Shown here piece by piece: positions 5,157 through 55,780 of a stretch of DNA of 58,762 bases (the stretch's first letter is position 1; the number at the start of each line of letters is the position of its first letter). The notes beneath the pieces are model-generated. The model had not been told where the DNA came from. It searched no databases and was given only the letters and a program-made list of their open reading frames with translations. The position numbers were made by a program, and so were the translations under genes. The DNA is from Chiloscyllium plagiosum (Eukaryota): contig NC_057718.1 in NCBI RefSeq assembly GCF_004010195.1, forward strand, positions 105,750,283-105,809,044, given 5' to 3'.

Positions 5157-5159
5157 AGG

Positions 5160-5608: not shown

Positions 5609-5826
5609 ATTAAAAATCACACTGCACCAGGTTATAGTCCAACAGGTTTAATTGGAAGTACTAGCTTTCAGAGCGCTGCTCCTTCATCTGGTGGTTTTGT
5701 CTGTAGCTGATGAAGGAGCAGCACTCCAAAAGCTAGTGCTTCCAATTAAACCTGTTGCACAATAACCTGGTGTTGTGTGATTTTTAACCTTGTACACCCC
5801 AGTCCAACAACATTTTCAAATCATGA
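5609..5826. mobile_element. Short foldback non-autonomous PLE derivative (family A) with two mutated HHR motifs
   Basis: Arms taaaaatcacac...ccttcatc and gatgaagg...gtgtgatttttaa are inverted. A ~40-nt tail lies on the right arm only. Flanking direct repeat gaatgatag at 5600-5608 and 5827-5835. Confidence 0.8.
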
Positions 5827-15500: not shown

Positions 15501-15872
15501 TGAAATGCTCTGGTAAAGCTCACTCACATTGACTGCAGACCTACACCAATATAGAAGGAGCTGGTTGAACTGTTGCTCAGTCAGAAAGTAACATGTGGGA
15601 GAGTCCATTTTTAACTGATACACAAGTGTCCTTTAGGATTGGAAACCTGCCATCCTTACCTTGTCTGGCCTACATGTAACCCCAGGCCCATAATTACGTG
15701 GCTGACTTTTCCCAGACGGCACTTATGGGCAGTAAATGCTTGCCTGGCCAGTGAGTCCCACATCCCATGAATGAATTAAGGAAGGAAGTGCTTTGTCATG
15801 AGGTGAAGCAGTGAAGGGTTAAGGTTGTGAAGGGTCATGCTGTACGTTAATGACCTCCTGTATATACAATGG

Positions 15873-15985
15873 TAAAAATCACACAACACCAGGTTATAGT
15901 CCAACAGATTTAATTTAACCTGGTGTTGTGGTGTGATTTTTAACTTTGTACACCCCAGTCCTACACGAGCATCTCCAAATCATGA
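15873..15985. mobile_element. Minimal foldback remnant of the family A PLE terminus
   Basis: aaaaatcacacaacaccaggtta / taacctggtgttgtggtgtgattttt inverted arms plus the same 3' tail as 5609-5826. Confidence 0.7.
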
Positions 15986-16002
15986 CTCCTTAATGTACAG
16001 TA

Positions 16003-17325
16003 GTTAAAAATCACACTATACCAGCCTACAGTCCCAACAGGTTTATTTATAAGCATTAGCTTTCAGAGCACTACTCCTTCATATGATAGCTGTGGAGCAG
16101 GACCATAAGAGACAGAATTTATAGCAAAAGATCACAATGTCATGCAACTGAAATTATATATTGAACAACTCTAGATTGCTGTTAAGTCTTTCATCTTTTA
16201 GAATGGATTGCAGATTTCAGTTCATTAATATGTAAATCCCAGAACTTCTTTTAAGTCAAGTTCTCAAGATAACTTAAGGTTTTATTTTTTAAAAATGACA
16301 TCTCAGCTCAGACAATGCATTAAAGGTGTGAAGTTAGTGTCTGTCTGTATCCCAATCTTGAGTCAGACTGGTTCTATTTTCGAATGTCCATTTGCAGAAT
16401 TAGATAAAATCAATGACTGCAGATGCTGGAAACCAGATTTTGGATTAGTGGTGTTGGAAGAGCACAGCAGTTCAGGCAGCATCCGAGGAGCAGCATTAGC
16501 AGAATTATATTTGCAGATATATTTTATTTTGTTCAAAATGTGCACAATCAGCAGGCAGTCAATCCATGCATTATTTTATAAATTCTCAGTTCAGCATTTA
16601 GCCTCAGACCTTTGGGTGACTATCCTCCAAGGCAGACTTTGGGATATGCAACAATGCAGAGTGGCCGAGCAGAGGCTGTTAGCCAAGTTTGGTACCCACG
16701 AGGATGGCCTCAACAAGGACCTTGGGTTCATGTCACACTACAGGTGACCCCACTGCACTACATACTCACTCACACACTCTCTCTCTCTCACACATGCACG
16801 CACACACAAATAGGTCTGTGGGGTGAATTATATTTGCAGATACATTCTATGTCGCTCAAAAATCAGCAGGCAGTCAATCCATGTAATATTTTTAAAATTC
16901 CACTTTGGAAATAGAACCAGTCTGACTCAAGGTTGGAATACATAAAGACTCTAACCTCACACCTTTAACACATTGTCAGAGCTCAGATGTCACTTTTTTC
17001 TATAAAACCTTAAATTATCTCGAGAATGTGACTTAAAAGAAGTTCTGGGATTTACATATTAATGAACTGAAACCTGCAACCTATTCTAAAAGATGAAAGA
17101 CTTGACAGCAATCTATGTTTGTTCAATGTATCATTTCAGTTGCATGATACTGAAATATTTTGCTATAAATTCTGTGTCTTATGGTCCTGCTGCACAGCTA
17201 CCTGATGAAGGAGCAGTGCTCTGAAAGCTAGTGCTTCCAAATAAACCTATTGGGACTATAACCTGGTGTTGTGTGATTTTTAACTTTGTCCACCCCAGTC
17301 CAACACCGGCTTCTCCACATCATGA
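16003..17325 (+). mobile_element. Neptune-type PLE remnant: inverted pLTRs (~16003-16380 and ~16908-17284) around a GIY-YIG C-terminal fragment
   Basis: ~375-bp inverted arms. Internal peptide LWVTILQG...RVAEQRLLAKFGTHEDGLNKDLGFMSHY. HHR in the right arm. Family B fragment at ~16410-16494. Confidence 0.85.
17199..17233 (+). ncRNA. Minimal type I hammerhead ribozyme motif (family A pLTR)
   Basis: UAC-CUGAUGA-A-GGAGC agu GCUCU-GAAA-GCUA^GUG: intact core, stem II, palindromic AGCU stem III, short stem I. Confidence 0.8.
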
Positions 17326-18065
17326 CTCCTTTATGTAAACTTGCTTTATGTTCTAGAGATTGACTGTACTTTGTTTAACAAATTACCACATAACTTTCAA
17401 ACCAAATTGCATCAATGATTTCTTTACCTCAGTCTGGCTGACGAGCATATGCACTGAAGTGTCAATAAAACACATGACCCAGTGGCACAATGAATAATAT
17501 TCCTAGTCATCCAGAATTCCCAATCTCAGATACTTTGTTATAGGAAGTGCAAGCTGATGGTCAGGCACTTTCCCTTCCAGCCAACACTATCACACCTTCC
17601 AGCAAATGCTTTCAGAACAGCAGCTTACAGTCGGGAGCAACATGGTTTATTGCTGCAAACTGAAGTGATCAAAGAAAAAGAGCAGCAGGAAAGTGTGACA
17701 TAAGGTAGTTTAAGAAACCCCTATGAGTTTAAGTCTCTTGAAAATAAGAGCATACCAAACATTCAGAAAAGTCGCACACATGTGGGAGGCACTGAAAGGT
17801 AATGTGTGCTTGCCTGAAATGAGAAAGCAATTAATTGGAGGAATTAAAAACCTGGGATGCAAATAAGAATTTTGCAATGCTTGTAGGGAAGATCACATGT
17901 TGTAGTGATTATAATGAGGTCAGCCAAGTGGACCTCATAAAATGAATTCCCTGATTGGGGCTGCTAATCTCATCCAATCATGGAGCTCTGGCTGACAGAT
18001 AAACAGGAGTTTCAGACATTCTGTTTACTCTGAGGGTTGCATCAGTGCCAATGACTCTCCATTTG

Positions 18066-19140
18066 TGTCAGGGGACTGACTCTGAGATGGCTGCCCACAT
18101 CCAGTGTGTACTGCTGCTGTTGGTTTCTGTTTTTTTCTGGGGAACCTGATTCCTGAAGTGGTTTGAACTATACAGTCAGTTTGTTAACTGGTATTCCTTT
18201 AAATTGAGGACTGATTTCTAAACTGGCTGATTTACAGTCAGTGTTTCAGGTATAATTCAGTTCTCATTAGGGAACTGTTGTTTCACTGGCTGATTACAGT
18301 CTGTGTGTTACTCTTTTCTTTTACTTTGAGAAAAGGACTATGCTGATTTTGTGGCAGAGCTTAACCCTTGCATTCTTGGTTTCTTTCTTTTTTTTTTGCA
18401 TGTGTTTTCACTTTTTTGGTGTTTAGATTTAGCCCCTGTGAAAAAATGCACCTTTCCAGATGAACTGTTCCTCTGTAGGTGGACTAGGCTTCTGAAAAGA
18501 CTGAATACTTGTGTGTGCTGGGAAGTGAGCATTTGCTGTGTCCTCCTTTGGGAGTGGACCAAACCTCTGAGTTAACTGCATCTTTACAATGAACCGTTCC
18601 TGATCTTTTGTGGATAGACCAGGCCTTTATGGAGACTGAACATCTGTGGTGTGCACTGTGGGGTGTACATTTGCTGCCTTCAGGAGTGGACTCTGCATAC
18701 CAGAATGGATTCTGCCTTTGGTTGTGGATTCTATTTCTGACAACTTACTCTGTGTGCTGGAGTGGATGGGGAGGACAGGATGTCCGAGAGTTGGCCACAA
18801 GGGGCATGTTGGACTGACAGCCGGAAGGGGTGTAGGGGCAGGCTATCTTTGCGTGGCTGGAAGGTGGGAAGACGGGTGGTTTGCTAAGTTGCCATGGGTG
18901 TCTGTGAAATATGCACTGTTTCATTATTCAGTTTATCAGACTGTTTGTTTGTAATTGTGTCTCCTGTTTTTGGTAAGGTGGGATTTGAAGTTTGTCCTCT
19001 CATTTTGTTTCCCCTGTGAACTGGTTGTATGGTGGGGTTTGGGGGTCTGGCTTTGCCCCCCCACCTTTCCCTATAAATTGCTGTTTCTTGTAAACTGCTG
19101 TTTATTGTTAACTGTTTGTGATTTTACTGGTTAATAAAAT
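18066..19140 (+). mobile_element. Non-autonomous insert 1 in the LTR (possibly Tx1/L1-clade derived)
   Basis: Starts tgtcaggggactgactctgagatggctgcc; T-rich 3' region ends ttaataaaat; shares 5', middle and 3' blocks with insert 2. Clade assignment is inference. Confidence 0.6.
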
Positions 19141-19301: not shown

Positions 19302-20157
19302 GTAGCCAGCGTAGAGTGTGGTGCTGGAAAAGCACAGTGGGTCAGGCAGCATCTGAGGTGCAGGAGAATTGATGTTTCAGGCATAAGCCCTTCACGAATA
19401 AGGCTTGTGGGCTGGGAAAATTGGAAGGGAGGAGGGTGGCGCTGGGAGGCAAGGTAACTGAGAGCCTCCAACCTCATCATCCACGAACCTTGCTCCACTC
19501 TCTTCCACTTCCTACTGAAGATTCCCAAACCTAACTTCCCTGGTTGACCCATTGTCTCAATTGCCTCTTGTCCCACTGAACTCATCTCTGCATACCTTGA
19601 CACCATCCTGCCCCCTCCGCGCCCCCCCCAACTCCAGTCCAGGAACTCCCAACCTACATTCGGGACACCACCCACGCCCTAGTCCCTGTACACATCTACC
19701 CACAACTAAGGCCTCCAAGCTCTCCATTTCTTCCTTTCTCACCATCCCAACCAGTATGACCTTCATCCGCCTGGCTGAACTGGTCCCCACCCTCAACAAC
19801 TTCTCCTTCCAATCCTCCCACTTCCTCCAAACCAAAGGGGTAGCCATGGACCCAGCTATGCCTGCGTCTTTGTTGGGTATGTGGAACAGTCCATCTTCCA
19901 CAGCCAAACAGGCACCATTCCCCACCTTTTCCTCCGCTACATCGATGACTGACTGAATCGGCACCACCTCGTGCTGCCACAAATAGGTTGAAAAGCTAAT
20001 CAACTTCACCAACACCTTTCACCCCAAAGTCACATTTATCTGGACCATCTGACACCTCCCTTCTCTTCCTGGACCTCTCCATCTCCGGCGACCGACTAAC
20101 CACTGAGATTATTACAAACCCACTGACCCCCACAGCTACCTGCACTACACCACCTCC
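19302..20157 (+). mobile_element. PLE fragment: inverted family B pLTR (~19302-19455) plus decayed RT
   Basis: Peptides PIVSIASCPTELISAYLD, LNNFSFQSSHFLQTKGVAM, FLRYIDD are Penelope-type RT motifs. Confidence 0.85.
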
Positions 20158-21087
20158 TGTGAGATAATGCACCTTTCCAGATGAACTGTTCCTCTGTGGG
20201 TAGGCTTAGCCCTTTGTGGGTAGACTCAGCCTCAAAGACTGAACAGGTGTGTGCGCACAGGGAGGTGAACATTTGCTGCATCCTGGAATGGACCATTCCC
20301 TGTGGGTTAACTGCACCTTTTTACAATGAACTGTATTCCTGTGAGTGGGCCTAGTTCTGTGTGGATAGACCAGGCCTCTATGCAGACTGAACACTTGTGT
20401 GTGCGCCTTCAAGCGTGGACTCTGCCTGGGTACTGGAAACTGTGTATTGTGAGAATTTTGTGAATTCTGTTACTGTATGTGGGTTTTGTAATTGATTGTG
20501 TTTGAGTATGGGCTAGTCAGTACATGGGGTAGCTGGGGACTGCAGGGTTGATGACTGATTGTGTACTGACCAATGTGGGAGGGGCTAGGCAATTGATAGT
20601 GTGCTCACAGGAAGGCCAGTATAAGTCAGGCCAGTATAAGTCAGGCCGGTCAGTACGTGGAGAGGCTGAGCCAGGCGGCCGACAGCAACCTGTCGGAAGG
20701 CCAACCAGAGGAGGACTAATCAGTATGTTGGGAGCCATACAGCCGATGATCGGTCCATAGGAACACCGGCCAGGAGAAAAAGTCAGTCAGTACGCTGGAA
20801 GGCCGACAGCCCGACCGTAGGAAAGCAGATTGGGGGTGGCTTGGCCAGTATACTGCGTGACCGGTAGCCTGTGGCCGACGTCCGTCCCGAGGAAAGTGGC
20901 TGGGGAGGGTCAGTCAGGACGGAGACTGGAAGGCCAACAATCAGCCCATATTATTGAGTAAGTATGTGAGGTGCATGGGAGCTGGGTAGTCGACGACTAG
21001 GCTGGAAGAAAACAGGCCTGGGAAGGGTCGGTCAGTACGCAGGGCAGCTGGAGTCTGGAAGACCAACGACTGTCCTGCAGGAAGGTT

Positions 21088-21179
21088 CCTGAAGAAGGGC
21101 TTATGCCCGAAACATCGATTCTCCTGCTCCTTGGATGCTGCCTGACCTGCTGCTCTTTTCCAGCAACACATTTTCAGCT
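21088..21179 (+). mobile_element. 92-bp HHR-only PLE insertion with 13-bp TSD
   Basis: CTGAAGA-A-GGGCttatGCCC-GAAA-CATC core at 21089-21116. TSD ctgcaggaaggtt at 21075-21087 and 21180-21192. Confidence 0.85.
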
Positions 21180-22039
21180 CTGCAGGAAGGTTAGCCAAGG
21201 ATGGTCTGATCAGAGTGTGGTGTGAACTGGTGTCAAGTTTTTTTAAGCTATATTGGGTCTGTGCTTTATGCACTTTTTTTTTCATTTGATTGGACTGTCT
21301 TGTCTGTGTTTGTTACTGTTTACTTTGTGATGCTTGAAAGTGATATTTGAGGTTTGTCCTTATTTCCCTGAAAACTGGTTGAATGGTGGGGCTTGGCTTT
21401 GCTCCCATTCCTCTGTATATAGCTTTTTTTTAACCGCTGCTTTCTGTTTATTGTTAGCTGTAATTTATACTATTAAATAAAATTTTAGCAAAATAAACAG
21501 GTGTGTCAGAGATCCTGTTCACTCTGGGAGCTGGCTCTGCAGGAGCTGGATCAGTATCAAGGACTCTCCACATGTAAATAAATGATGACTTGGCGATGGA
21601 ATACCGCACCCAGAGAAGTACTTCACCTTTAAATACCTGGAAAAAGTCAAAGTGACAGGTGTGTCTCTGATCATCCCAATTGGATATACTTATGGCATAT
21701 AGGCTATAACCATGAAAAACAGGTTCTTCAATAAATTGTACTTTTTGACTATGATATTAAGATGTAATTCAACTCCAACAGCTCATACTAATAGAGAATA
21801 AAAGCCCACATGCAGCACCCTTGAATCACGACTATGTAGAAGAAAATGTACATTATACAGATACTGCTGCACATAGTAAATTGAAAAGCACATGCTCAAA
21901 ATTACAAAATAGCACATCAGCAGATGCAGGAAAATAATATTAGCAAAAGCAAGACAGATGAAGTGACAGAACATTACAGCTCACCAACTATAGTATAGAG
22001 AGTATACAGTAGAGAGAGAAAAGAAGAAAGCTTGTAGAC

Positions 22040-25440: not shown

Positions 25441-26407
25441 ATGTTTTCCTTTCAGAAAGTTGACAGAGCTAAATACCTCAATGATACACCAAAAGCTCAC
25501 TTTCTTTTTGAGACCAGGATGCAAAATACCACTGAAATTTCTGGAAATATTATGCCACAAAAGGTCACAATGTGCAAAATGTAGTCTCACAATGTTTTAT
25601 GATTAAAACCATTGTTATCTGCTGCAGAAATATATCATGGACATAGTTTAACAGAAAAGAATAAGGAAAGGCCTCGTCTGTTACACCTGTTCGCTCCAAA
25701 GATATGTGACATATTTTATCAAACTCATTCAATCTCCCAGAGAAACAATTACAAAATTACAAAATTTAAATCAAACAGAATATTCAGCTAATTTTCAATA
25801 GCTTGCACCATTATACATAGCACCCTTAACATTGGAAATAACACCATTTATCAGTGAATAATTGCCTTTCCTAGTATGACATTTTAAGATCTTTACAGCT
25901 TTCTTTCTCAATTCCATTCTCAGCCACACAGTCATACATGGGAAGATACAGCCTACAGGTCTTGTAATCCATTATGCTACACATAGCACCACCAGACAGC
26001 AATGCCACAGCATCCTGAGCTCATGGCTCACTTGACTGCAGATATCTCACAATGATTAGAGAAAATAATAGCTCAAATGGCAATTGCTAAGAGATAAGGA
26101 ACTTTGAACTGCTCAAATGAGATTTTGTGGATACACCACTGATAACTGAAGTATTCCAATTTACCACTTTCCTTGATACTGCCTTGACTGGTGAAATGTA
26201 GAGAAGTTCACTGTCAAGTATACATTCAATTAGTAATAAAACTACCTGAATTGAAGACAACACTTATGACTTTAATAAAAATAATTTGGATAGATTTAGG
26301 AACTCTTGTGCATAATCATCATAAAACACAGGTGCGCACATAGGTCATTCAGCCCATAAGTCAATCTTGATCAGATGGGACAACGGGCTGAGGAGTGGAA
26401 GATGGAG

Positions 26408-26963
26408 GTTAAAAACAATGACTGCAGATGCTGGAAACCAGATTTTGGATCAGTGGTGCTGGAAGAGCACAGCAGTTCAGGCAGCATCCGAGGAGCAGCG
26501 AAATCGACGTTTTGGACAAAAGTCCTTCATCAGGAATAAAGGCAGAGAGCCTGAAGCATGGAGAGATAAGCTAGAGGAGGGGGGGGGTGGGGAGAAAGTA
26601 ACATAGAGTACAATAGGTGAGTGGGGGAGGGGATGAAGGTGATAGGTCAGGGAGGAGAGGGTGGAGTGGATAGGTGGAAAAGAAGATAGGCAGGTAGGAC
26701 AGGTCCGCTGCCTATCTTCTTTTCCACCTATCCACTCCACCCTCTCCTCCCTGACCTATCACCTTCATCCCCTCCCCCACTCACCTACTGTACTCTATAC
26801 TACTTTCTCCCCACCCCCACCCTCCTCTAGCTTATCTCTCCACGATTCAGGCTCTCTGCCTTTATTCCTGATGAAGGGCTTTTTCCCGAAACGTCGAATT
26901 TGCTGCTCCTCGGATGCTGCCTGAACTGCTGTGCTCTTCCAGCACCACTGATCCAAAAACAAA
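26408..26963. mobile_element. 556-bp foldback (palindromic) PLE derivative, family B, with 15-bp TSD
   Basis: 251-bp inverted arms at 26443-26693 and 26708-26958, 14-nt spacer, 35-nt tail on the left arm only. TSD gagtggaagatggag at 26393-26407 and 26964-26978. Confidence 0.92.
26864..26899 (+). ncRNA. Minimal type I hammerhead ribozyme motif (intact)
   Basis: AUUC-CUGAUGA-A-GGG cuuuuu CCC-GAAA-CGUC^GAAU: stem I AUUC/GAAU, palindromic ACGU stem III, predicted cleavage after 26895. Confidence 0.85.
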
Positions 26964-27779
26964 GAGTGGAAGATGGAGTTTAATTGAGATTAATGTGAGG
27001 TGCTGCATTTTGGAAAGGCAAATCACAGCAGGACTTATACACTTAATGGTAAGGTTCTAGGGAGTGTTGCTGAACAAAGAGACCTAGGAAAGCAGGTTCA
27101 TAGCTCCTTGAAAGTGGAATTGCAAGTAAATAGGATAATGAAGACTGTGTTTGGTATGCTTTCCTTTATTGATCAAAGTATTGAGTATAGGAGTTGGGAC
27201 TGTACAGATCATTGGTTAGGCCACTTTTGGAATACTGTGTGCAATTCTAGTGTCCCCTCTATCGGAAGGATTTTTGTGAAACTTGAAAGGGTTCAGAGAA
27301 GATTTACAAGGATGTTGCCAGGGTTGGAAGATTTGTGCTGTAGGGAGATGCTGAATAAGGCCTGGGCTATTTTCCCTGTAGCATCGGAGGCTGAGAGGTA
27401 ACCTTTATAGAGGTTTATAAACTCAGGAGGGACATGGATAGGGTAAATAGACAAGGTCTTTTCTCTGGGATGGTGGAGTCCAGAACTAGAGGGCATAGAT
27501 TTAGGGTGAGAGGGGAAAAATTTAGAAGGGACCTAAGGGGCAACTTTTCCATGCAGAGGGTGGTGTATGTATGAAATGAGCAGCCAGAGGAAGTGGTGGA
27601 GGCTGGTACAATTGCAACATTTAAAAGGCATCTGGATGGGTCTATGAGTAGGAAGGGTTTAACGGGATATGGGTCAAGTGCTGGCAAATGGCACTAGATT
27701 AGGTTAGGATATCAGGTCAGCATAATTGAGTTAGACCAAAGGGTCGTTTCCAAGCTGTACATCTCTAGGACTCTGAGTC

Positions 27780-30041: not shown

Positions 30042-32060
30042 TCACCATGGTAAACTAATAGAGAAAGTGAAGTCGCATGGTGTGCAGAGTGGATAAAGAA
30101 CTCCAAGTCTGAGCCGATCCAAATCTACTGTCTAAACCTGTCGCCCAATTCCTAAGGATCTGTATCCCTCTGCTCCCCACCTACTCATGCATCTGTCCAG
30201 ATGCATCTTAAATGAACCTGCCGTGCCTGCCTCTACTACCTCTGCTGGCAACGCGTTCCAGACCCCACCAGCCTCTGTGTGAAGTACTTGCCGCGTGTAT
30301 CCCCCTTAAACTTTTCCCCTCTCACATTGAAAGCGTGACCTCTCGTTACTGAATTCTTCACCCTGGGAAAAAGCTCATCTCTACCACCCTTCTATGCCCT
30401 TCATGATTTTGTAAACCTCCAATCAGGTCCCCCCTCAATCTCCTTTTTTCTAATGGAAACAAACCTAACCTACTCAACCTCTCTTCATAGCTAGCACCTT
30501 CCATACCAGGCAATATCCTTGTAAACCTCTGCACCCTCTCCAAAGTGTACACCCAGAACTGTACACAGTATTCTAAATGTGGCCAAACCAATGTCTTGTA
30601 TAATTTTAAGATGACCTGCCAGCTCTTATACTTAATACCCCGTCCAATGAAGGCGAGCATACCATATGCCTTCTTGACCACTCTATCCACCTGTGCAGCC
30701 ACCTTCAGGGTACAATGGACCTGCACTCCCAGATCTCTGTGCCCATCAACTTTTCTCAAGGCTCTTCCGTTCACTGTATAATTCGCTCTATAATTAGTCT
30801 TGCCTAAACGCATCACCTCACATTTGTCTGGATTGAACTCCATCTGCCACTTCTCTACCTAACTCCCCAGTCTATCTATATTCTGCTGTATACTTTGACA
30901 GTCCCTTATGGTTTCTGCTACTCCACCAATCTTAGTGTAATCTGCAAACTTGCTGCTCTTCCAGATCATTTATGTATATCACAAACAACAGTGGCCCCAA
31001 TACTGATCCCTGTGGAACACCACTGGTCACCTTTCTCCATTTCGAGAAACTCCCTTCAACTACTACTACTACTACTACTGTCTCCTGTTGCTCAACCAGT
31101 TCTTTATCCACCTAGCTAGAACACCCTGCACACTATGTGACTTCACTTTCTCTATTAGTTTACCATGGGGAACCTTATCAAACACCTTACTAAAGTCCAT
31201 GTATATGACATCAACAGCCCTTCCTTCATCTATCAACTTGGTCACTTCCTCCTCTACCACCCTTCTATGCCCTTCATGATTTTGTAAACCTCCAATCAGG
31301 TCCCCCCTCAATCTCCTTTTTTCTAATGGAAACAAACCTAACCTACTCAACCTCTCTTCATAGCTAGCACCTTCCACACCAGGCAACATCCTCGTAAACC
31401 TCTGCACCCTCTCCAAGGCATCCACATCCTTTTGGTAATGTGGCGACCAGAACTGTATACAGTATTCTAAAAGTGGCCGCACCAACATTGTGTACAATTT
31501 AACATGACCTGCCAGCTCTTATACTCAATACCCTGTCCGATAAAGGCAAGCATACTGTATGCCTTCTTGACCACTCTATCCACCTGTGCAGCAACCTTCA
31601 GGGTACAATGGACCTGCACTCCCAGATCTCTCTGCTCATCAACTTTTCCCAAGGTTCTTCCGTTCATTGTATAATTCGCTCTAGAATTAGACTTCCCAAA
31701 ATGCATCACCTCACATTTGCCTGGATTGAACTCCAACTGCCACTTCTCTGCCCAACTCTCCAGTCTATTTATATCCTCTGTTTTCTTTGACAGTCCCTTA
31801 TGCTTTCTGCTACTCCACCAATCTTAATGTCATCTGCAAACTTGCTGATCATACCAACAGTGCCCTGTTCCAGATCATTTATATATATCTCAAACAACAG
31901 TGGCCCCAGCACTGATCCCTGTGGAACACTACTGGTCACCTTTCTCCATTTCAAGAAACTCCCTTCAACTACTACTCTGTCTCCTGTTGCTCAACTAGTT
32001 CTTTATCCACCTAGCTAGAACACCCTGCACACCATGCAACTTCACTTTCTCTGTTAGTTT
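30042..32060 (-). mobile_element. Rearranged CR1: internal tandem duplication plus short inverted segment
   Basis: ~30380-31250 is repeated at ~31252-32060; 30042-30101 is an inverted copy of the LIEKVKSH region. Confidence 0.88.
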
Positions 32061-34514: not shown

Positions 34515-35445
34515 CTGCTCATCAGAAACATAACTAGTCAAAAACCTCATGCACATAATTCACAATTTTTTTTTTAAAAGCAATTCATCAGGCAAGGAGT
34601 TGAGACTATTGCTGAGAATCCCAAATGTCTTAGAGAATATGTCCAGTGAATAGTTACAATTACAGCCCAAGCACTTCCCAAGTTTGGTGAGTGAAGTAAG
34701 TTAAATAACAGAGATCAATTGGGATGCTACAATGGGAAGCATAGTCAGCGTCCACATGTTAGCAAGATGAAAACCAAAAAAGGTTAATTTATTTAATAAT
34801 GACTGATGTCACACACAAGCCAAAACAGGTCTGAATGAGATGGTTTACTGGCCACTCTCATGTGAATTCTTTTCTTTATAATTTCATAGGGCAGGAAACA
34901 GTGCCTACAGTGACCCCACGTCCCATGAACGAATAAATAAATTATCCTGAACAGAAAAATTTGGAAATAAAACTGGCTCCATGATCCAACAAGCAGGAAG
35001 TGATCGATATGCACAGATAATTTGATAAATAAGAATACTAGAACCAATGCTTTTATATAAAAAGGTATGCTACTGTCAGATGCTAATCGCTACTTGATTT
35101 TATTTGGAATAATACACTGTTTTATATTGCATTTTAATGCAAATATGATCTAATTATCTAAAACAAATCAATAATTTATTGAAGTTTGGTCTGCACTGTA
35201 GATGATGCTCTTCACTTCAAAAGAAGGAAACATTACAAATACTAATATCTCATTTTAAATTAAAATTTTAAATAACTTTATATTCACAGAAACGGTCTTA
35301 AGAAGGCATTTTATGCTTTCTTGGCTGATATTGATAGGTTAATTAATTTAATTTTCATTTGTCTATAGATGAAAAGTATCCATATTCAACATAATTCCAA
35401 AATCAACAAGAAAAATACATGTTTCTTACTAAACAAAAAAAAAAT

Positions 35446-35575
35446 CAAAGAACTGCAGATGCTGGAAATCAGAAACAAGATCAAAAATTGTTGGAAAAAC
35501 TGAGCTGGTCCAGTAGCATCCGTGGAGAGAAAGCAAAATTAACATTTCAGATTCAGTGACCCTTCATCAGAACCC
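35446..35575 (-). mobile_element. Older PLE pLTR fragment (family C) with degenerate HHR
   Basis: aactgcagatgctggaaatc terminus; reverse complement CTGATGAAGGGTCACTGAATCTGAAATGTTA. Confidence 0.65.
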
Positions 35576-35738
35576 AACAAAATGTTTCTGGTTGAAGGCT
35601 TTTAGATTTCATAGCTAGCAATCTCAAAAATACTTTTAGGCCCCTGTATTGCCATCTGACAAGGTATGAAGAAAAGATTGAGGTTAAAATACAACTGAAG
35701 CATTTGGGCAATGTTCATTCAAGTTCAAAGAAACTTAC

Positions 35739-38829: not shown

Positions 38830-39245
38830 TATTCATTCATAGGGTATGGGCATCGCTGACTGGGTCAGCATTATTTGTCCATCTCAAATTGGAGATGATA
38901 GAGGGGAGTTGCCTTCTTGAAGTTAAAAATCACACAACACCAGGTTATAGTCCAACAGCTTTATTTGGAAGCACTAGCTTTCGGAGCGCTGCACATTTCT
39001 CAGGTAGTTGTGGAATATATGATCATAAGACATAGCATTTATAGTAAAAGTTTACAGTGTGATGTACCTGAAATTATATACTGAAAAAGATCTGGATTGT
39101 TTGTTAAGTCTCTCATAATCCATGGGCCCACAATGAGGAGGTTCAGGATTCTGACTCAGTGACACTAAAGGAACGGCAATACAGTTCCAAGTGATTTGAG
39201 AGGAATTTACTGGTGTTGGTGTTCCCATTTGTCAGCTGCCCTTTC
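38830..39245 (-). mobile_element. Old CR1/L2-group 3' fragment containing a family A pLTR piece (~38923-39118)
   Basis: attcattcatagggtatgggcatcgctg tail; insert begins gttaaaaatcacacaacaccaggttatagtcc. Confidence 0.7.
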
Positions 39246-40679: not shown

Positions 40680-41085
40680 AATCAAGAGCAGGAGCCTTTC
40701 AAGTCTGCTCCACCATTCAACAATATCATGGCTGATTGGATTGTAACCTCAAACCCACACTTCTGCCTCCCCTAATAACCTATGGCCCCCTTGCTGAACA
40801 AGAATCTACCTCAAAAATATTTAAGGGCTTTGCTTCCACTGCTCTTTCAAGTAGAGAATTCTAAAGGCTTACAACCCTCAGAGAAAAAGTATGATCTCAT
40901 CTGTTTTAAATGGACAATCCCAAATTTTTAAACAGTCACCCTATGTTCTAGGTGCCCCAAGAAGAAACATCCTCTCCCAATGTTCTCTGTCAAAACCCCT
41001 CAGGATCCTGTATATTTCAATTGGGTCACATCTTATTCTTATCCAGCAGATACAAGCCTAGCCTGTCCAACCTTTCCCCATAAGA
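40680..41085 (-). mobile_element. Old CR1 3' tail
   Basis: ccattcaacaatatcatggctgat 3' UTR pattern. Confidence 0.6.
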
Positions 41086-41086
41086 T

Positions 41087-41890
41087 GACCTCTTTCATCA
41101 GGCAGAAGATACTAAAGCTTAAACACATGTACCAATAGGTTCAAGGACAGCTTCTTCCCCAGTGTTATTAGATTTAGCTGGTATGGCAACTGTACCATTC
41201 AAGATTGGAGACGGTTACACAGAGTGGTGAACTCAACTCGTAAAACCACAAAGGCCAACTTCCCATCTATAGAATCCATCTGAATCCTTCCTGAAGAAGG
41301 GCTAATGCCTGAAACGTCGATTCTCCTGTTCCCTAGATGCTGCCTGACCTGCTGCGCTTTTCCAGCAACACATTTCCATCTATAGAATCCATCTACCAAG
41401 CCCGCTGTCAAGGAAAGGCTGCCAGCATTCTTAAAGATCCATCCTACCCTGGCATTGTTTTTCTACAACCTCTACCACGGAGAGAAGGTACAGAAGCCTG
41501 AACACGCACTCGCTGGTTTCCGAACAGTTTTTACCCTACTGTTGTTAGAATACTGAATGGACTCTCAAACTCTTAACATTCGCCTGTACCCATGTTTTTG
41601 TTTTTGTCTCTGTTTACCTATTATTTATGTATCTACGCTATGTAACTGTGCGATCTGCCTGTATTGCTCGCAAAACAAAACTTCTCACTGCGCCTCAGTA
41701 CCCATGACAATAAATTCAATTCAATTCTGAATGGACCTCTTAAATTTCAAATCTAATGTTGATCTTGCTTTTAGTGCACCTTCTTTGCAGCCATAACTCT
41801 GTCTTCCTCGCTCTGTTCGATCACCCTAATATCTTTGTATGGTAATGATCTGCCTGCACTGCACACAAAATAAAACTTTTCACCATACCT
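41087..41890 (+). mobile_element. Two nested Rex1/Babar LINE 3' fragments (inner copy ~41175-41725)
   Basis: Inner copy reads KAASILKDPSYPG...RRYRSLNT...NSFYPTVVRILNG and ends aataaattcaattcaattc. Outer copy (RFKDSFFPSVIR) resumes at ~41726. Confidence 0.72.
41282..41375 (+). mobile_element. 94-bp HHR-only PLE insertion with 19-bp TSD
   Basis: CTGAAGA-A-GGGCtaatGCCT-GAAA-CGTC core at 41291-41318. TSD ccatctatagaatccatct at 41263-41281 and 41376-41394. Confidence 0.88.
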
Positions 41891-41896
41891 ATACCT

Positions 41897-42567
41897 TACA
41901 TAGAACATAGAAGAATACAGCGCAGTACAGGCCCTTGGGCCCTCGATGTTGCGCCGATCCAAGCCCACCTAAACTACACTAACCCACTATCCTCCATATA
42001 CCTATCCAATGCCCTATTAAATGCCCATAAAGAGGGAGAGTCCACCACTGTTACTGGCAGGGCATTCCATGAACTAACGACCCGCTGATACGATTTTCCT
42101 TCCATACCAGGCAACATCCTGGTAAACCTCCTCTGCACCCGTTCCAATGCCTCCACATCCTTCCTATAGTATGGCGACCAAAACTGCACACAATATTCCA
42201 GATGCGGCCGTACCAGAGTCTTATACAACTGCATCATGACCTCAGGACTCCGGAACTCAATTCCTCTACCAATAAAAGCCAGTACGCCATATGCCTTCCT
42301 CACCGCACTATTTACCTGGGTGGCAACTTTCAGGGATCTGTGTACATGGACACCAAGATCCCTCTGCTCATCCACACTACCAAGTATCCGACCATTAGCC
42401 CAGTACCCCATCTTTTTGTTATTCTTCCCAAAGTGAATCACCTCGCACTTAGCTACATTGAATTCCATCTGCCACCTTTCTGCCCAGCTCTGCAGCTTCT
42501 CTATATCCTGCTGTAACCTGCCACATGCTTCCTCACTGTCAACAACTCCTCCGACTTTCGTATCATC
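41897..42567 (-). mobile_element. Young CR1 3' portion with internal deletion
   Basis: Open frame DDTKVGG...LEYCVQFWSPYY...WNALP; (catagaa)n tail. Confidence 0.92.
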
Positions 42568-42569
42568 AA

Positions 42570-44450
42570 TTAGGAAGTAGTTCACCTTCTCTGAACTACT
42601 TCCTAAGAAATGAACTTTTACTATGCACAGTACTCGCCAGTGTCCTGTAAATGAAGCATAACTCCCTTCTTTTATATTCAATTCCCCTCACAATAAAAAA
42701 TAACATTCTATTAATTTCCCTAAGTATTTGTTGCACCTGTATTTTTACTTTTGTGATTTATTCACTACCCAACTCCCTCTGCATCTCAGAGCTCTTGAAA
42801 TCTCTCGTCATTTAAATAATATGCTTCTTTTTTATTTTACCTGCTAAATTGGAAAATTTCACATGTTCCCACATTACACTCCATTTGCCAGATCTTTATT
42901 CACTGGCTTAAATTTACTATATCCCTCTAACCTATCGCTATTCTTATGTCCCCTTCATAACTTATTTTCCTAACTATCTTTGTGTCGCCAACACGTTTAG
43001 CAACCATACTTTCTGTTCATTCACCCACATCTTTTTATACAAGTTGTAAACAATTGAAGTTCCAGCACTGATACCAGATGCACACCACTCATTACATCTT
43101 GTCAGCCTGAAAAAAGACCCACTTATGTCTATTCTCTTCTTCTTAGCCAGCCAATCTTCTAGACATGCCAAATGCTTCCCCTACACCATGAGCTTTTACT
43201 TTCTGCCATAGCCTTTGATGTGGCACTTAGATTTCCAGAAGGCATTTGTCAATGTCCAGTACATCCATCCACAGCAGATTAAGTCCTTAAAGAATTTTGA
43301 TAATACAATCATAAGAGATAGGAAGAGGAGTAGACTGTTCGGCCCCCTCGAGCCTGCTCTGTTATTTTATAAGATCACGGCAGATCCGACATTCCTTATG
43401 TCCATTTTCATGCATTTTCCCCATAAACCCCGATTCCCCAACTGATCAAGGATCCATCTCAGCCTTAAGTATACACAAGGGCTCTGCCTTCACAGCTCTC
43501 TGTAGCAAGCAGTTCCAAAGACACACAACCCTCGTAGAAAAGAAATCCTCATCTGAGTCTTAACTTGGTACCTCTTTATTCTAAGATTATGCCCTCTAGT
43601 CCTGGACTCTGCCATGACAGGAAACATCCTCTCATCAATTACCCTGTCAAGCCCCTTAAGAATCATATGTTTCAATGAGACCACTTCTCATTTGTCTAAA
43701 CTCCAATGAGTAGAGTCCCAAACTGCTTAGCTTTTGCTCATTAGACAATCCCTGCATACCAAGGATCATCCTAACGAACCTTGCCTGAACTGCCTCTTAT
43801 GAAATGATGTAGATCCTTAAATAAGGGGACCAAAACTGCCCACAATACTCCACTTTTTACAGTTGCAGTGAGACTTCCCCTACTCTTATACTCTAACTCC
43901 ACCAAAATAAGGGCTAACATTCCAGTCTTCCTGATTACCTTCCAGGATCTGTCTGCACTACACACAATATTTTTCACTATACCTTGGTATAGGTGACAAT
44001 AATAAGTCAAATCAAAAAATTATTACCTGCTGCACCTGGGTGGCAGTTTTGTGATTTCGTGCACAATCACCCCCAAGTCCCTTTGTGTGCAGCTTTCTGT
44101 AGTTTCTCCATTTAAACAATATTCTGTTCTTTTGTTCTCCATTCCAAAATGAACTTTACATGTTACCATATTATACTCCATTTGCCAATTTTTGCTCACT
44201 TACTTAACCTATCTCTCTGTAAACTGATTGTATCTCTCGCTCAGTGGCCTTTCTACTTGTTTTTGTGTCAGCTAAACATGATCAGTTAAACATCATTTCC
44301 TTTTCACAAAACTCAGTTGATTCTGCCTGATCACCTTGAACCTTTCTAAATATCTCATTATAACATCTTTGATAATAGATTTTAGCATTTCTATAATGAC
44401 AGATGTTAAACCAACTGGCCTCAGTCTCCTACTTTCTCCTGTTTTGAATA
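42570..44450 (-). mobile_element. Two adjacent old CR1 fragments (~42570-43270 and ~43305-44450)
   Basis: Decayed SGVPxG and WQM motifs; 3' UTR at 43310. Confidence 0.7.
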
Positions 44451-44690: not shown

Positions 44691-44915
44691 CTATGCATTG
44701 AGGGGGTTTTGGAAAATCAAAATCAATGCATCAACTATCTCATGAACCACATTTTTACATGGCCCTAGCATGACATCCAACAGACCTGGGTAGATGTCAG
44801 CCCAACAATTTACTCAGTACCACTTTTCTGGTGATTGTGATTTTCCTGGAGTTCCTCCCACTCTTCATACTTATGGCTAGATTTCTGTCCAGCTCTAATT
44901 TTTTACTTGTTTATT

Positions 44916-46921
44916 CAAAGCTTGGGAGAAGATTTGTAGCTTGGGTGCTCGTTGTTGTGGTTCTGTTCGCCGAGCTGGGAATTTGTGTTGCAGACGTTTC
45001 GTCCCGTCTAGGTGACATCCTCAGTGCTTGGGAGCCTCCTGTGAAGAGCTTCTGTGATCTTTCCTCCGGCATTTGTAGTGGTTTGAATCTGCCGCTTCCG
45101 GTTGTCAGTTTCAGCCGTCCGATGCAGTGGCCGGTATATTGGGTCCAGGTCGATGTGCTTGTTGATTGAATCAGTGGATGAGTGCCATGCCTCTAGGAAT
45201 TCCCTGGCTGTTCTCTGTTTGGCTTGTCCTATAATAGTAGGTTTCTGTTCTGTATGTCCAGCAGGTTGGCTATTGTTTCTTTGGCTAGGTTTTTGTCAAT
45301 AGAGGTGAACACTGCCGTTACATCGAATGAGACCATAGTTTCTTGTCGATGTGTATATTTCTGATGATGTCCAAAACCCCCAGATTCTATGGACTACGAA
45401 AGTGCACAAACCCGACATCCCACTCAGACCCATAGTATCACTACCAGGGACACCATCACACAAACTGGCTAAAGAACTACAACAGAAACTGAACACCTGA
45501 TCAGCGGATCCAGACACTATACAGTCAACACAGGAATTCTTGGACATCATCAGAAATATACACATAGACAAGGAAGAAACAATGGTCTCATTCGATATAA
45601 CGGCACTGTTCACCTCTATCGACAAAACCCTAGCCAAAGAAACAATAGCCAACCTGCTGGACATACAGAACAGACAACAAGACGGGGAACCTATCAACAA
45701 AGACTGCATACTCAAACTACTGGACCTGTGCCTCACAATACACTTCACATTCAACAACCAAATATATGAACAAGTCAACGGCACGGCCATGGGCTCATCT
45801 ATCTCTGGACTCATAGCAGAAGCGGTAATGCAAAGGTTAGAACAAACAGTCTTACCGCAAATTCAACCCAAACTCTGGGTCAGATATGTAGATGATACCT
45901 TTTGTAATCATTAAAAGCACAGTAATAGAGAACACACATCGGATCATCAACGCCACTCTCTCAGGAATTCAATTCACTAGAGAGGAAGAAAAGGACAACC
46001 AACTCCCATTCCTAGATGTGATGGTACAGAGAACACCGAACAGAGAATTCACCACAAAGGTATACAAGAAAGCCACACACACAGACCAAGTCCTAAACTA
46101 CGAAAGCAACCATCACAACACACACAAAAGAAGTTGCATCGACACTGTTCAAAAGGGCCACAACACACTGCAGTACACCAGAACTGCAAAAAGAGGAAGA
46201 AGAACACCTATACAATGTATTCGCCAAAAACGGATACCCCTGCAATTTCATCAACAGATGCCTAAGGGAAAGACAACAGAATGAGGACATGCCACAACCC
46301 AAAGGACTAGCCACACTACCATACATCAAAAATATTTCTGAACTGACAGCCAGACTACTGCGACCACTAGGACTCATAACAGCACACAAACCAACAGCCA
46401 CTCTCAGACAACAACTCACCAGGACGAAGGACCCGATACCCAGCATGAGCAAAACCAATGTAGTGTACAAACTCCCATGCAAGGACTGCACAAAACACTA
46501 CGTAGGACAAATAGGAAGACAGCTAATGATCCGCATCCATGAGCACCAACTAACCACGAAACGACATGACCAGCTATCCTTAGTAGCCAAACACTCAGAT
46601 GACAAGCAACATGAGTTCGACTGGGACAACACTACTATTATAGGACAAGCCAAACAGAGAACAGCCAGGAAATTCCTAGAGGCATGGCACTCATCCACTG
46701 ATTCAATCAATAAGCACATCGACCTGGACCCAATATACCGGCCACTGCATCGGACAGCTGGAACTGACAATCGGAAGCGGCAGATACAAATCACTATAAA
46801 TGCCGGAGGAAACATCACAGAAGCGCTTCACAGGAGGCTCCCAAGCACTGAGGGTGTCACCTAGACAGGGGATGAAACGTCTGCAACACAAATTCCCAGC
46901 TCGGCGAACAGAACCGCAACA
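44916..46921 (+). mobile_element. Poseidon-type Penelope retrotransposon, 5'-truncated, RT + GIY-YIG pseudogene with inverted pLTR
   Basis: PRFYGL.KVHKPDIPLRPIVS, MVSFDITALFTSI, GTAMGS, WVRYVDDTF, LPFLDV, NVVYKLPCKDCTKHYVGQ. Inverted arms 44951-45240 / 46632-46923. TSD acttgtttatt at 44905-44915 and 46922-46932. Confidence 0.93.
44990..45027 (-). ncRNA. Hammerhead ribozyme motif in the Poseidon pLTR (intact core)
   Basis: Reverse complement GCA-CUGAGGA-U-GUC...GAC-GAAA-CGUC^UGC. The plus-strand twin at ~46845-46884 has CUGAGGG (A9 changed). Confidence 0.75.
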
Positions 46922-46989
46922 ACTTGTTTATTAATTTGTTTAGACATTTTTACGACTTTATATTGTCATTATAAATTGCAGACATTATG

Positions 46990-47150: not shown

Positions 47151-47835
47151 GATGGGGTATATGACAAATGCTTAACCCATTATCCTTGTTCCATGTCATC
47201 CTCAAAGTTGAATTTACGTTATGTTGCTGTTATAGTAACCCTGGCACTGACAGAGGCCTGGAACCAGCTCACCTACGTTGAAAAACAATGGTGGTTTTAT
47301 CTCAAAAGTTTGCACATACAACCAAAATGGGCCGCTTTAACTTTGTCACCCCTAAATAAATTATTTCTTATTTATTATTGCTGGAGAAACAATTGAAAAA
47401 AGTTCAGCAATAAAATAGACAAATAAAACAGTGATTTGGTGGACCTAACTAAAAGTTGACTTCATACTTGTAGTTGATGGTGTATGAAGTGGCATACAGA
47501 GAATGATAAAAAGGAGGAAGGGAGTATGGAGCGCTGTGGTACACTTGAGTGACTGCAAGGGTTTGATAAAATAAAGCAACATATTATCTCTGATTCAAAC
47601 TGTCTGACCAGAATCAGGAGACAGTTTTGAGACACTGAAGATGGATGTTTAAAGTGTGGAGTAAATAGCATCACATACTGCACAGATGAGGGTCAAAGGC
47701 CCATGGTTGTATAGGATGTCAGTGACCCCAGTGTCATCGCGTCAGGGTTATGAGCATGGCAGAAAGCAGAGTGTCAGGTCTAAAACAGGGAGATGCTGGT
47801 GAGGTAGAACCATTAGTGCAAGGCAACAAGGTTTA

Positions 47836-48000
47836 AAACAAAAGCAGAAATTGTTGGAAAAACTCAGCTGCATTTCAGAACTGAAGGATCACTTGACCCA
47901 AAACATTAACTTTGCTTTGTCTCCACAGATGCCAAACCTGCTGAGCTTTTCCAGTAATTTCTGCTTTTGTTTCTGATTTCTGGCATCAGCAGTTTTTGTT
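47836..48000. mobile_element. Old family C PLE foldback remnant
   Basis: aaacaaaagcagaaattgttggaaaaactcagc / gctgagcttttccagtaatttctgcttttgttt inverted arms plus tail; HHR decayed. Confidence 0.65.
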
Positions 48001-48099
48001 TCTTCTTGGTTAAGGTCTAAAACATTTAGGGAAAGTATGAAGAAATTTAGCAACCAGTGGCTTTAACCTTTACTGGAATTAATCGTGAAATATTAATGC

Positions 48100-49475: not shown

Positions 49476-50840
49476 TACTGTCCGGTCAGAAACCGCAAGG
49501 TTACATCGATAGAAAACAAGACATGAGCTGCAACTGACAGGGTACCCTTCATTGTCCAGTACTTCCCAGGAGCTGAAACACTACGCCATGTTCTTTGCAG
49601 CCTGCAACACGTTATCAATGAGGATAGGCACCTTGCCAAGACCTTCCCCACACCTCCACTTCTCACCTTTAAACAACCACCAAACCTTGAACAGATCATT
49701 GCTCGCAGCAAACTGCCCGGCTTTCAGGACAACACCATACAACCCTGTCACAGTAGGCACTGCAAGATGTGTCAGACTGTCGACATGGATACCACCATTA
49801 CACATGGGGGTACCATGTATCATGCACACAGCAGGTACTCACGTGACTAGGCCAACGTTCTCTATCTCATACCTCAAGGATGCCCTGAGGCATGGTACAT
49901 TGGTGTGACCAAGCAGAGGCTACAGCAACTGATGAATGGACACTGCACAACAATCAATAGACAGGAGTGTCCGCTCCCAGTCGGAGAACACTTCAGCAGT
50001 CTGGGACATTCGACCTCAGACCTTCAGGTGACCATCCTCCAAGGTGGACTTCGGGACAGGCAACAACACAAAGTGGCCGAGCAGAGGCTGATAGCCAAGT
50101 TCGGTACCCATGGGATGGCCTCAACTGAGACCTTGGTTTCATGTCACATTGCAGGGGACCTCACTGTTCTACGCATTCTCTCACACATGCACACAAGCAC
50201 ACACGCGCACACACATACTCCTACAGATCCATACACTCAAGCAGACCCTCTCTCATATACAAGCTCTCTCTCATACGCTAACACATACACAAGCCCCACA
50301 CACACAGCCTCGCACGGACGTATACCCCTTTACATTCACACACACAGGCACACTCTCTCACAGACACTCATGCACACACACGTATATAAACGTTTGTGGA
50401 ACGAATTTGTACTTGCAAAATTACATTTTATTTTCCCCAAAAACTGCATGAATCCATGTAAGATTCAGTAAATAGAATCAGTCTGAACATTGGGGCACAG
50501 ACAGCCTCACACAGGGCACCTCACACCTTCAATGCATTATCTGGGCCGACATGGCACCAATTGTTAAAGTTCACTTGAGAATGCAACTTTAAAAACAATT
50601 TGGGAATTTACATGTGAAAGAACTGAAATCAACATAGTCATTCTAAAAGATGAGAGACTTAAACAATCCAGATCTTTTTCAATATATCATTTCAGTTGCA
50701 TCACACTGCAAACTTTTGCTATAAATTCTGTGTCTTACGAGCTTATACTCCACAACCACCTGAAGGAGCAGTGCTCCAAAAGCTAGCGCTTCCAAATAAA
50801 CCTGTTGGACTATAACCTGGTGTTGTGAGATTTTTAACTT
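49476..50840 (+). mobile_element. Neptune-type PLE 3' fragment (Cys-rich linker + GIY-YIG + pLTR of family A)
   Basis: RVPFIVQYFPG, FKQPPNL, PCHSRHCKMC, NVLYL...WYIGVTKQRL, PVGEHFS, AEQRLIAKFGTH; CA-rich 3' UTR; terminal ggactataacctggtgttgtgagatttttaac. Confidence 0.9.
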
Positions 50841-51199
50841 GGATAAAAGTAAACATTTTCAAATCTGTGCTCTTATTGTACCAAAATCAATTTTGCACCT
50901 GTCACATAAGCCATCCTGGAGACCTGCAAATTGTTCATTTAATGTGCTTAGCAGCTTGTGTTTTGTTTTGGCAAGGCTCATGGGGATTTGGTGCAAAATT
51001 AACAAATATATTACAGGACTCACAACCATTTGTCAGAAAACTGTCTAACAGTGGTCTAAGAGTTTAATAAACATATAATCAAGCAGCATTACTACAGGTA
51101 ATGCAGGTTCCTCTAGCTGAGTATTTCTGTTTGTTGTTTTCTTCCAGCAGCTGTTTTGTGGAAAGACATAAAAACAGACTGTAAAAGTTTCTATACAAA

Positions 51200-51715: not shown

Positions 51716-51726
51716 TAACCGAGTCA

Positions 51727-52480
51727 GAAATCACACAATACCAGTTTATAGTCTAATAAGTATATTTGGAAGTACTAGCTTTCAGAGTGCTGCTCCTTCA
51801 TCAGTGTTAGTGAGAAAGGAAGATATTAGACACAAAATTTATAAGGAAAAGTCTCACTAACACTTGATGAAGGAGCAGCACTCCGAAAAATAGTACTTCC
51901 AAATACACCTGTTGGACTATAACCTGGTGCTGTGTGATTTTTAACTTCGTCCACCCCAGTCCAACACAGGCACCAACACATCACAGAATTTATGGGCAGA
52001 GAAATCAAGGCCAGAGAGATCATAAGATCATACAAATGGTGTGAATAGAGTGTCGAATAATAAATCTGTACAGGTGACCAAGGGTGTTAGATGGTGCGAG
52101 TAAAAAGTATCAATAACTGGATAACAACATATAGTCTGATTAAATGAGGCAGAGAGATAATCCAAAATTGTACAAACTAATTAACTTGAGAGATCACAAT
52201 TTATCAACGTGATGGTGTCAAAACAGGACAATAAGGAAGATTTTACAGATACAGATCAGTGTGGTGAGATCACATGTAGCACGTCATGAACCCAAGATCA
52301 TGGTTGAGGCCATCTTCATAGGTTTGGAACTTGGCTATCAGTCTCTGTTTGGTGATTCTGCGTTGCTATGCATCTCGAAAGCTGCCTTGGAGGACAGTTA
52401 CCTGAAGATCAGAGGCTGAATGTCCTTGACCACTAAAGTGTTCCCCTCTGGGAGAACTCTTGTCTGATGATTGTTGCTGT
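51727..52480. mobile_element. Family A foldback (~51727-51985) followed by a minus-strand Neptune GIY-YIG C-terminal fragment
   Basis: Inverted arms with HHR motifs; the minus-strand core at 51773-51806 reads CUGAUGA-AGGAGCAGCACUCU-GAAA-GCUA. Reverse complement of 52280-52440 encodes EHFSGQGHSASDLQVTVLQG...LIAKF. Confidence 0.78.
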
Positions 52481-54309: not shown

Positions 54310-55780
54310 CATTAATTACTTAGATGTGAATGTAGACAATGTACATAACAAACAGCAAGGGTCTCAGTACCAATCCCTTTGGTAGACAGCTGGTCACAGG
54401 CTTCCAATCACAAAAGCAACTCTCCATCAACACCCTTTTCCTCCCATTTATAAGTCAATTTTGGATCCAGTTTGCCAATGTGCCTTGGATCCCATGGGCA
54501 CTTACCTCTTGGATCAGTCTTCTATGTGAGACCTTGTCTAAGCCAGTGTAAACTGAAGCAAATGTAAACCACATCAATTGTATTATTCTCATCGATACAT
54601 TTAGTCAACCATTCAAAAAACTCAATTAAGTTTGTTAGATAAGATCTCCCTCCAACAAATCTTTGTCGTCTATACTTGATTAATCCATGCCTTTCCAAGT
54701 CTTGATTAAGCCTGTCCCTCAGAATTGTTTCCAATAATTCTCCTGCAACTGACATCAGATTAACTGGCCTGTAATTATTTGGTCTATCCCTGCTGCCTTT
54801 TTGAGCAAAGCAAACACATGAGCTATCTCCAGTTATCTGGTACTTCACTTCAGGCCAGCAAAGTATTAAATATCTCTGCAAGATTCCCAGCAATTTCCTC
54901 TCTTGCTTCCTGTTGCAGCCTGGGATATATCTCATCAAACCCAGGGGATTTATTCACCAGTATGTCTGTTAAGTATTCAACACTTCCTTCTTATTATTCT
55001 TAATGATTCTAGAACCTCACCATCCAAACTGAAATCCACAGCTACAATGTTTTTCTCTCTTGTGAATCTCGATTAAAAACATTTAAGACCTCACCCACAC
55101 CCTCTGGCTCCATGCACAGGTTGCGCCTTTGATCTCTAATAGATCCTACTCTTCCCCTAGGAGAAAGTGAGGACTGCAGATGCTGGAGCTCAGAATTGAG
55201 AGTGTCATGCTGGAAAAACACAGGTCAGCCCTTCATTTCTGATGAACAGCTTATGCCCGAAACAGCGACTCTCCTGCTTCTTGGATGCTGCCTGACATGC
55301 TGTGCTTTTCCAGCACCACACTTGACCATACTGTTTCCCTGGTAATCCTCTTATTCTTAAGAGTTTGGCTTAATGCTATCTGCCAAAAATATTTCCTTTT
55401 TAAGCAACCTCCTACACCATACATTTGAAGGGCCACCCTTGTTTTTGAAGTGCTGACCTGACATATACTTCCTTCTTTTTCCTTTATCAAACTCTAGATA
55501 TCCCTTTACAACCAGGATTCCCTGAACTTGCTGTTCTTGCCCTTCAATCTTAAAGGAATTCACTAGCCCTGAATTCTTACTTTACTACTTTTAAAAGATT
55601 CTCACTTTCCAGTGCAGACCTACTTGTAAGTACTTGTGCCCAGTCAGTGTCTACCAGATCTGTCCAATGATATTGAAATTGTTTTCCTACAGTTTAGACA
55701 TTTAACTCTAAGTTTCAAAGTCATGATGGAAAAGGATAAGAATAGTGCAGAAGTTATGATCACTATTCCCAAAATTCTCA
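54310..55780 (-). mobile_element. Old CR1 ORF2 fragment
   Basis: NYRPVNLMSVAGELLETILRD, GRSYLTNLIEFFE. Confidence 0.8.
55160..55328. mobile_element. Family B PLE foldback remnant with decayed HHR
   Basis: ggagaaagtgaggactgcagatgctggag tail; gctggaaaaacaca / tgtgcttttccagc inverted; ctgatgaacagcttatgcccgaaacagc. Confidence 0.7.

Follow-up and report, generated by a model that had tools for sequence, protein, structure and literature searches.

The 94 bp enclosed by a repeated 19-mer at 41263–41394 of the window (the whole stretch of 58,762 nt that was analysed) raise the question of whether a hammerhead ribozyme with little else attached can move as an element in its own right, as the earlier note proposed, or whether it is a remnant of something longer. 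Our analysis favours the latter: the insert is probably a truncated terminal piece of a high-copy Penelope-like element (PLE), as opposed to an independent element that consists of the ribozyme alone.

The flanking 19-mer, CCATCTATAGAATCCATCT, is present in two exact copies on the plus strand (41263–41281 and 41376–41394). An exact extension to the left is absent (22 nt match at 95%), and across the whole window, three short tandem arrays aside, this pair is the sole exact repeat of at least 19 bp within 300 bp. The interrupted host sequence is a non-LTR retrotransposon 3′ remnant (41170–41730, plus strand, limits approximate), which we take to be Rex1-like; it has no match in Pfam, and an Atlas search gave PF09004 at 0.82, a lead by our usage (under 0.9). 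Scripted excision of the 94-bp insert and one copy of the target-site duplication (TSD) makes the left coding frame continuous with the right frame, a single copy being sufficient for the host frame. The host repeat is multi-copy, and its other copies, in DNA and RNA runs, lack the insert and hold the 19-mer singly. Because the reading frame of the LINE remnant is restored, the 94-bp insert is a true insertion; both the TSD and the pre-insertion empty site expected of a truncated PLE (EN+) insertion are present. The earlier description of a 94-bp insert with a perfect 19-bp TSD is therefore confirmed, and its further reading as a bona fide retrotransposition product near the minimum size is supported, its length lying towards the short end of the size range.

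Family sequence makes up 88 of the 94 inserted bp (41288–41375, plus strand). This stretch is a tail-less terminal module of a PLE family, here named A, and is identical at 81/88 positions to a sibling at 21086–21173. The other six nucleotides, GAATCC (41282–41287, plus strand), form the 5′ junction and are foreign to the family, whose reads show CCTCA before 41288. The same 6-mer also occurs inside the TSD (background rate 0.8%), and the target is its probable source through re-copying; a weaker alternative derives it from the bases past the cut site, copied over 5 nt in inverted orientation. The 3′ end lies at +84 from the core, in the tail-less class described below and 6–9 nt before the point where family A copies usually end. 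The first six nucleotides of the right TSD copy agree with the next family bases at 4/6 positions, and this match may have shifted the start of reverse transcription, which is only a guess; since PLE priming occurred without target homology according to the available text of one study (PMC11167929), this agreement at the 3′ junction could equally be fortuitous.

The hammerhead anatomy listed in the earlier note (CUGAAGA, GGGC/GCCU, GAAA, CGUC and about 57 nt of 3′ sequence) was found, and it is that of a PLE-type minimal motif. The predicted minimal type I hammerhead (41291–41318, plus strand) comprises the core CUGAAGA (41291–41297), an extra A (41298), a 4-bp stem II GGGC/GCCU (41299–41310), GAAA (41311–41314) and the palindrome ACGU (41314–41317), with a predicted cut after C41318 that leaves 57 nt downstream, up to 41375. 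This arrangement fits the minimal hammerheads (min-HHRs) of PMC4209133 in the part of that account available, and accords with the PLE characteristic of a type I min-HHR within the terminal repeat. Rfam returned no hammerhead at gathering score in the window and none at E ≤ 10 in 40800–41900, so the assignment is made from the motif by itself. Stem II of the 94-bp copy closes with a G–U pair, the family having mostly G–C (41310 is C in 76% of the depth of run X1). A single minimal hammerhead shows no cleavage as a monomer in the accessible portion of PMC4209133. The 94-bp copy is probably inert now: as a monomer it lacks the partner on which a minimal hammerhead depends, and it no longer has the G–C closing pair of stem II. 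The locus folds no better than its shuffles (z −0.43), and the in-register stem I has a probability of 0.003 in the fold; an intact-core sibling is also out of register, as judged from its minimum-energy structure alone, so this value does not discriminate, and misfolding was dropped as an argument against ribozyme activity. In both folded copies, nucleotides directly 5′ of the core base-pair with it and with the first part of stem II (41286–41300 and 26859–26877). By this folding model, such a hairpin could keep the ribozyme off and offer a possible fold-back point.

In other copies, family A runs on upstream of the inserted stretch and about 35–40 nt downstream of it. Behind 41375, 585 RNA-run reads come loose and yield a 30-nt tail consensus (agreement 0.52), and the inverted arm at 55.2 kb contains this tail; before 41288, 333 RNA-run reads come loose (agreement 0.57 over 30 letters), about half of them with one upstream sequence. 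As 0.9 of the aligned reads in the raw RNA run continue into other sequence and both strands are covered, these reads report on the family and not on the 41-kb locus. Besides the core at 41291, core-bearing family A copies in the window lie at 21089 (plus), 55239 (plus) and 19398 (minus). The first is the sibling, a 92-bp insert (21088–21179) within 21075–21192 on the plus strand, which has its own 13-bp TSD, the same 5′ start and a 3′ end 6 nt further on. The second belongs to a head-to-head insertion (55147–55340) with a fully tailed inverted arm, a tail-less direct arm and a decayed TSD of about 12 bp. The third is a family A end on the minus strand that, together with upstream sequence, is joined to a plus-strand coding fragment resembling reverse transcriptase (RT; 19308–20160). 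This RT-like fragment, at 19.4–20.1 kb and in opposite orientation to the family A end, gave an Atlas lead to RVT_1 at 0.83 and no Pfam match; one inverted junction and this lead tentatively tie family A to an RT, and no endonuclease was traced for the family. The fragment ends abruptly at a different repeat (20160–21330), into which the 92-bp sibling was inserted later; by eye, 18900–19140 resembles 21200–21400. Pattern scans for further copies gave 0 in the viral, metagenome (two patterns) and prokaryote collections.

Visual reading of 24 arms and fragments in this one window (5′ ends were determined likewise) sorts their 3′ ends into two classes: relative to the core, 13 lie between roughly +73 and +97, and 11 between roughly +100 and +140. 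Long DNA contigs depart from the family sequence some 8–14 nt behind 41371–41375 (211, 621 and 489 contigs in X1). An optional 30–40-bp tail is described at PLE ends (PMC8557442; PMC3846280), and a tail of 30–40 nt is defined by two internal RT start sites (PMC11167929), each in the portion of the source available; here the optional 3′ tail appears as the two end classes and in the RNA-run reads. One tailed and one tail-less arm make up every clear head-to-head pair (7/7; at 5.7, 15.9, 16–17, 26, 47.9, 51.8 and 55 kb), in a tally that omits the 45–47-kb pair, which looks alike and has an unconfirmed end, and the untraced 19-kb pair. In our analysis this pairing is best read as the two-start signature of PLE reverse transcription. 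The inverted, 5′-truncated partner copies typical of PLEs occur for family A at 55 and 19 kb and for related hammerhead-end families of the window (labelled B, C, D and P in this analysis) at 26, 5.7, 51.8 and 47.9 kb; the 94-bp insert itself is solo.

At the 5′ side, 6 of the 18 core-bearing arms start no more than 12 nt upstream of the core (cores at 41291, 21089, 55239, 5690, 5707 and 51863), two more starts in this zone are tentative (35570 and 47878, family D), and the remaining 10 arms extend from about −48 to beyond −400. Counted per insertion, 5 of 13 in the window have an arm starting within the zone, for which P = 0.011, 0.0006 and 0.00002 under exponential truncation with means of 100, 200 and 400 nt, respectively; the 12-nt zone was picked after inspection, so that these P values are post hoc and describe one window. 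The excess is present in families A and C, with the two tentative cases in D, and the 94-bp insert and its 92-bp sibling have a common 5′ start. Inserts starting at the cut site (+28) are absent from the window, and one poly(A) single-cell RNA run, considered along with one set of RNA contigs, revealed no place at which many reads start or stop. Contigs with a loose end at 41288 number 380 in X1 and 383 in X9, which indicates many loci with a nearby junction. We rejected these counts as proof of a 5′ peak, because contigs break in high-copy sequence and only junctions within about 15 nt are visible. Thus, of the discrete unit that had been proposed to start at the 5′ edge of the hammerhead, the recurrent boundary stands (the sibling; 5/13 insertions), but not the self-contained unit, since family sequence lies on both sides.

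The insertion, the extent of the family and the two end classes were observed directly; which enzyme acted, on what template and why copying stopped are inferences, set out as follows. The stub would probably have arisen by target-primed reverse transcription of the kind usual for PLEs. A PLE protein produced elsewhere and acting in trans would have cut the old LINE remnant with a 19-nt stagger, of which the duplication and the empty-site frame are the visible trace. On a PLE RNA that was linear and uncleaved, reverse transcription would have begun internally, from the inner, tail-less start about 85–90 nt downstream of the core, a placement suggested by the two 3′-end classes and by the internal start sites given in the available text of PMC11167929. 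Copying would then have continued across the cut site and through the core, to end 3 nt beyond it, in the preferred stopping zone seen in the window sample. Run-off at the RNA 5′ end would be the likeliest cause of this stop, and a stop or fold-back at the upstream-base/core hairpin the next; the joining step would have re-copied the six target nucleotides. In vitro, ribozyme-dead RNA inserts normally and uncleaved, unprocessed linear RNA is the main PLE substrate, according to the same partial source (PMC11167929). Since insertion proceeds from uncleaved RNA there, spanning the cut site requires no circle, and the earlier statement that the template was uncleaved or re-ligated/circular is true but uninformative.

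A more specific version is possible, although we consider it less likely than not: the inserts of about 90–130 bp might be strong-stop-like run-off products, in which transcription starts a few bases 5′ of the hammerhead, the protein binds the 5′-most repeat and begins reverse transcription there, and the cDNA reaches the RNA end. If this is true, the stubs would record, family by family, where transcription begins and where the RT starts, and PLEs would yield a SINE-like class of insert without a separate non-autonomous element. The term “strong-stop” occurs in neither of two papers found by a literature search.

A discrete non-autonomous mini-element of about 90 nt, retrozyme- or SINE-like, with its own transcript, perhaps cleaved as a dimer and closed into a circle, and mobilised by PLE protein acting in trans, would account for the common 5′ start of both solo family A copies with clear TSDs and for their lengths of 94 and 92. 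Several joints back to 41288–41290 (three in X1, one in X9 and one in X15) also accord with it, the X9 joint being a contig from a related organism that links 41375 to 41288 with two letters between and may be a head-to-tail dimer; animal retrozymes, moreover, derive from pLTRs and leave dispersed monomers, as stated in the accessible part of a preprint (bioRxiv 10.64898/2026.07.22.740005). However, the two solo copies differ in their 3′ ends, both of which fall in the tail-less class of the parent. The joints come mostly from DNA runs, where joints similar to the go-back joint of the one X15 contig are found, which argues for rearranged genomic copies and not circles. The RNA run has no start or end peak, a poly(A) single-cell run being ill-suited to small circles, and the retrozymes tested as circles carried canonical, not minimal, hammerheads in the available text of PMC7229834. 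A retrozyme comprises two or more hammerhead-bearing units in tandem succession; the 94-bp copy is a monomer, no tandem array of the unit occurs in the window, and boundaries of its own, apart from those of a longer element, were not found, although the 5′ start does recur. The border between a stub and a retrozyme monomer is partly definitional, and it is the tandem-unit working definition that the 94-bp copy fails. We consider a mini-element unlikely, and the designation of the insert as a ribozyme-only mobile unit or retrozyme is not supported, given that the family continues on both sides, that one copy adjoins an RT-like fragment and that the window is free of tandem arrays of the unit.

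No more probable is plain random 5′ truncation of a PLE, by which the stop before the hammerhead would be chance and the ribozyme motif a passenger. The clustering of starts in the 12 nt that precede the core, more than this explanation would predict (5/13 insertions; families A and C, tentatively D), stands against it; it otherwise agrees with the spread of the other arms (starts at about +63, +59, +57, +37, +34, −48, −60, −109, −176 or more, −187, −293 and beyond −400), with the RNA-run reads that come loose before 41288, about half of which share a single upstream sequence, and with the very short 5′-truncated PLE insertions known from the part of PMC9977147 available. An origin outside retrotransposition, namely DNA repair, local duplication or misassembly that left a TSD look-alike, appears very improbable: the exact 19-bp TSD, the restored host frame, the sibling with its own 13-bp TSD and the 3′ end in an RT-start class all oppose it, even though six junction bases look target-derived and none of the contigs listed spans the whole filled locus.

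Truncated PLE insertion, the reading that we prefer, places the insert among described systems. On most tested features it is a truncated PLE insertion with a solo minimal hammerhead, an already known type. According to the available portion of PMC4209133, most min-HHRs are solo and associated with truncated PLEs; they have the same CUGANGA core with an extra base before stem II, a palindromic 15.2–16.2 segment, no loop 3 and thousands of dispersed single copies per genome. The 94-bp copy differs in its G–U at the 10.1–11.1 pair, and that portion of the account is without cartilaginous fish and mapped insertion ends. PLE architecture, in the accessible parts of PMC8557442 and PMC3846280, comprises the pLTR, an optional 30–40-bp tail, an inverted 5′ copy and a variable duplication. 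Tailed and tail-less ends, head-to-head pairs, insertion from uncleaved RNA and an internal RT start 3′ of the hammerhead are shared with these and with PMC11167929 (likewise seen in part); in contrast, only 88 family bases are present here, and the TSD is 19 bp as against 8–10 bp in rotifer copies (PMC8557442; PMC3846280, same parts). The preferred 5′ stop at the hammerhead edge seen here is not among the features described in the available text of these PLE accounts.

Animal non-LTR retrozymes (PMC7229834; bioRxiv 10.64898/2026.07.22.740005; both from partial texts) are likewise non-coding, pLTR-related and equipped with a type I hammerhead, and they exist as dispersed monomers, with consensus lengths down to 51 bp. 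They are defined by tandem hammerhead units, and circles are shown for canonical motifs; unlike them, the 94-bp insert is a minimal-motif monomer with no local array and is continuous with longer PLE ends. Owing to 5′ truncation, new insertions of the Chlamydomonas Chlamys PLEs are short, with a median length of 128 bp (PMC9977147, available part), so the size of the present insert is ordinary for PLEs. Chlamys elements belong to a different clade, are mostly hammerhead-less (PMC8557442) and target microsatellites (PMC9977147), as far as the text available from these sources goes. Among open-access articles, our literature search found no account of such inserts or of mapped ends in cartilaginous fish.

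As one among very many PLE end stubs, the single locus is of little weight. It is a clean case with a demonstrable empty site, showing that PLE machinery can insert under 100 bases spanning a hammerhead that was not cleaved. The copies taken together are of greater value than this one: a 5′ pile-up, if genome-wide, would offer a handle on the start of PLE RNA and on the role of the hammerhead.

Several further elements of the window were noted. Family B forms a head-to-head pair (26393–26983) in which each arm extends some 187 nt 5′ of the core, with a TSD of 20–22 bp. A second PLE (44770–46930), presumably Poseidon-like, has plus-strand RT and endonuclease-like frames together with an inverted copy of its end; its hammerhead, whose stem II is longer, occurs at 45024 (minus) and 46848 (plus). 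Of seven short frames compared with Pfam, only the 45.5-kb RT frame gave a match (RVT_1, E = 8.8e-07, slightly under the curated cut-off); the GIY-YIG label of window elements other than family A is our assumption. A third hammerhead-bearing PLE family has GAAAGCUA directly after the core and the same tailed and tail-less ends (5610–5810, 15866–15990, 16002–17330, 38920–39116, 49500–50845 and 51720–51985). A family B end lacking the hammerhead core (16407–16494) lies inside a composite of this third family, and the third-family copy at 49.5–50.1 kb is preceded by a frame with a CX4CX2C motif, which we assume to be Neptune-like. Family D consists of older, diverged hammerhead-type ends, one of them solo with a possible 11-bp TSD (35430–35582) and the other a head-to-head pair with a 13-bp TSD (47828–48024). 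No host gene is evident among window frames of at least 120 aa. Decayed LINE coding fragments, which we take to be CR1-like, occupy 100–5600, 14079–14567, 26994–27401, 30358–31518, 41974–42687 and 54522–54953.
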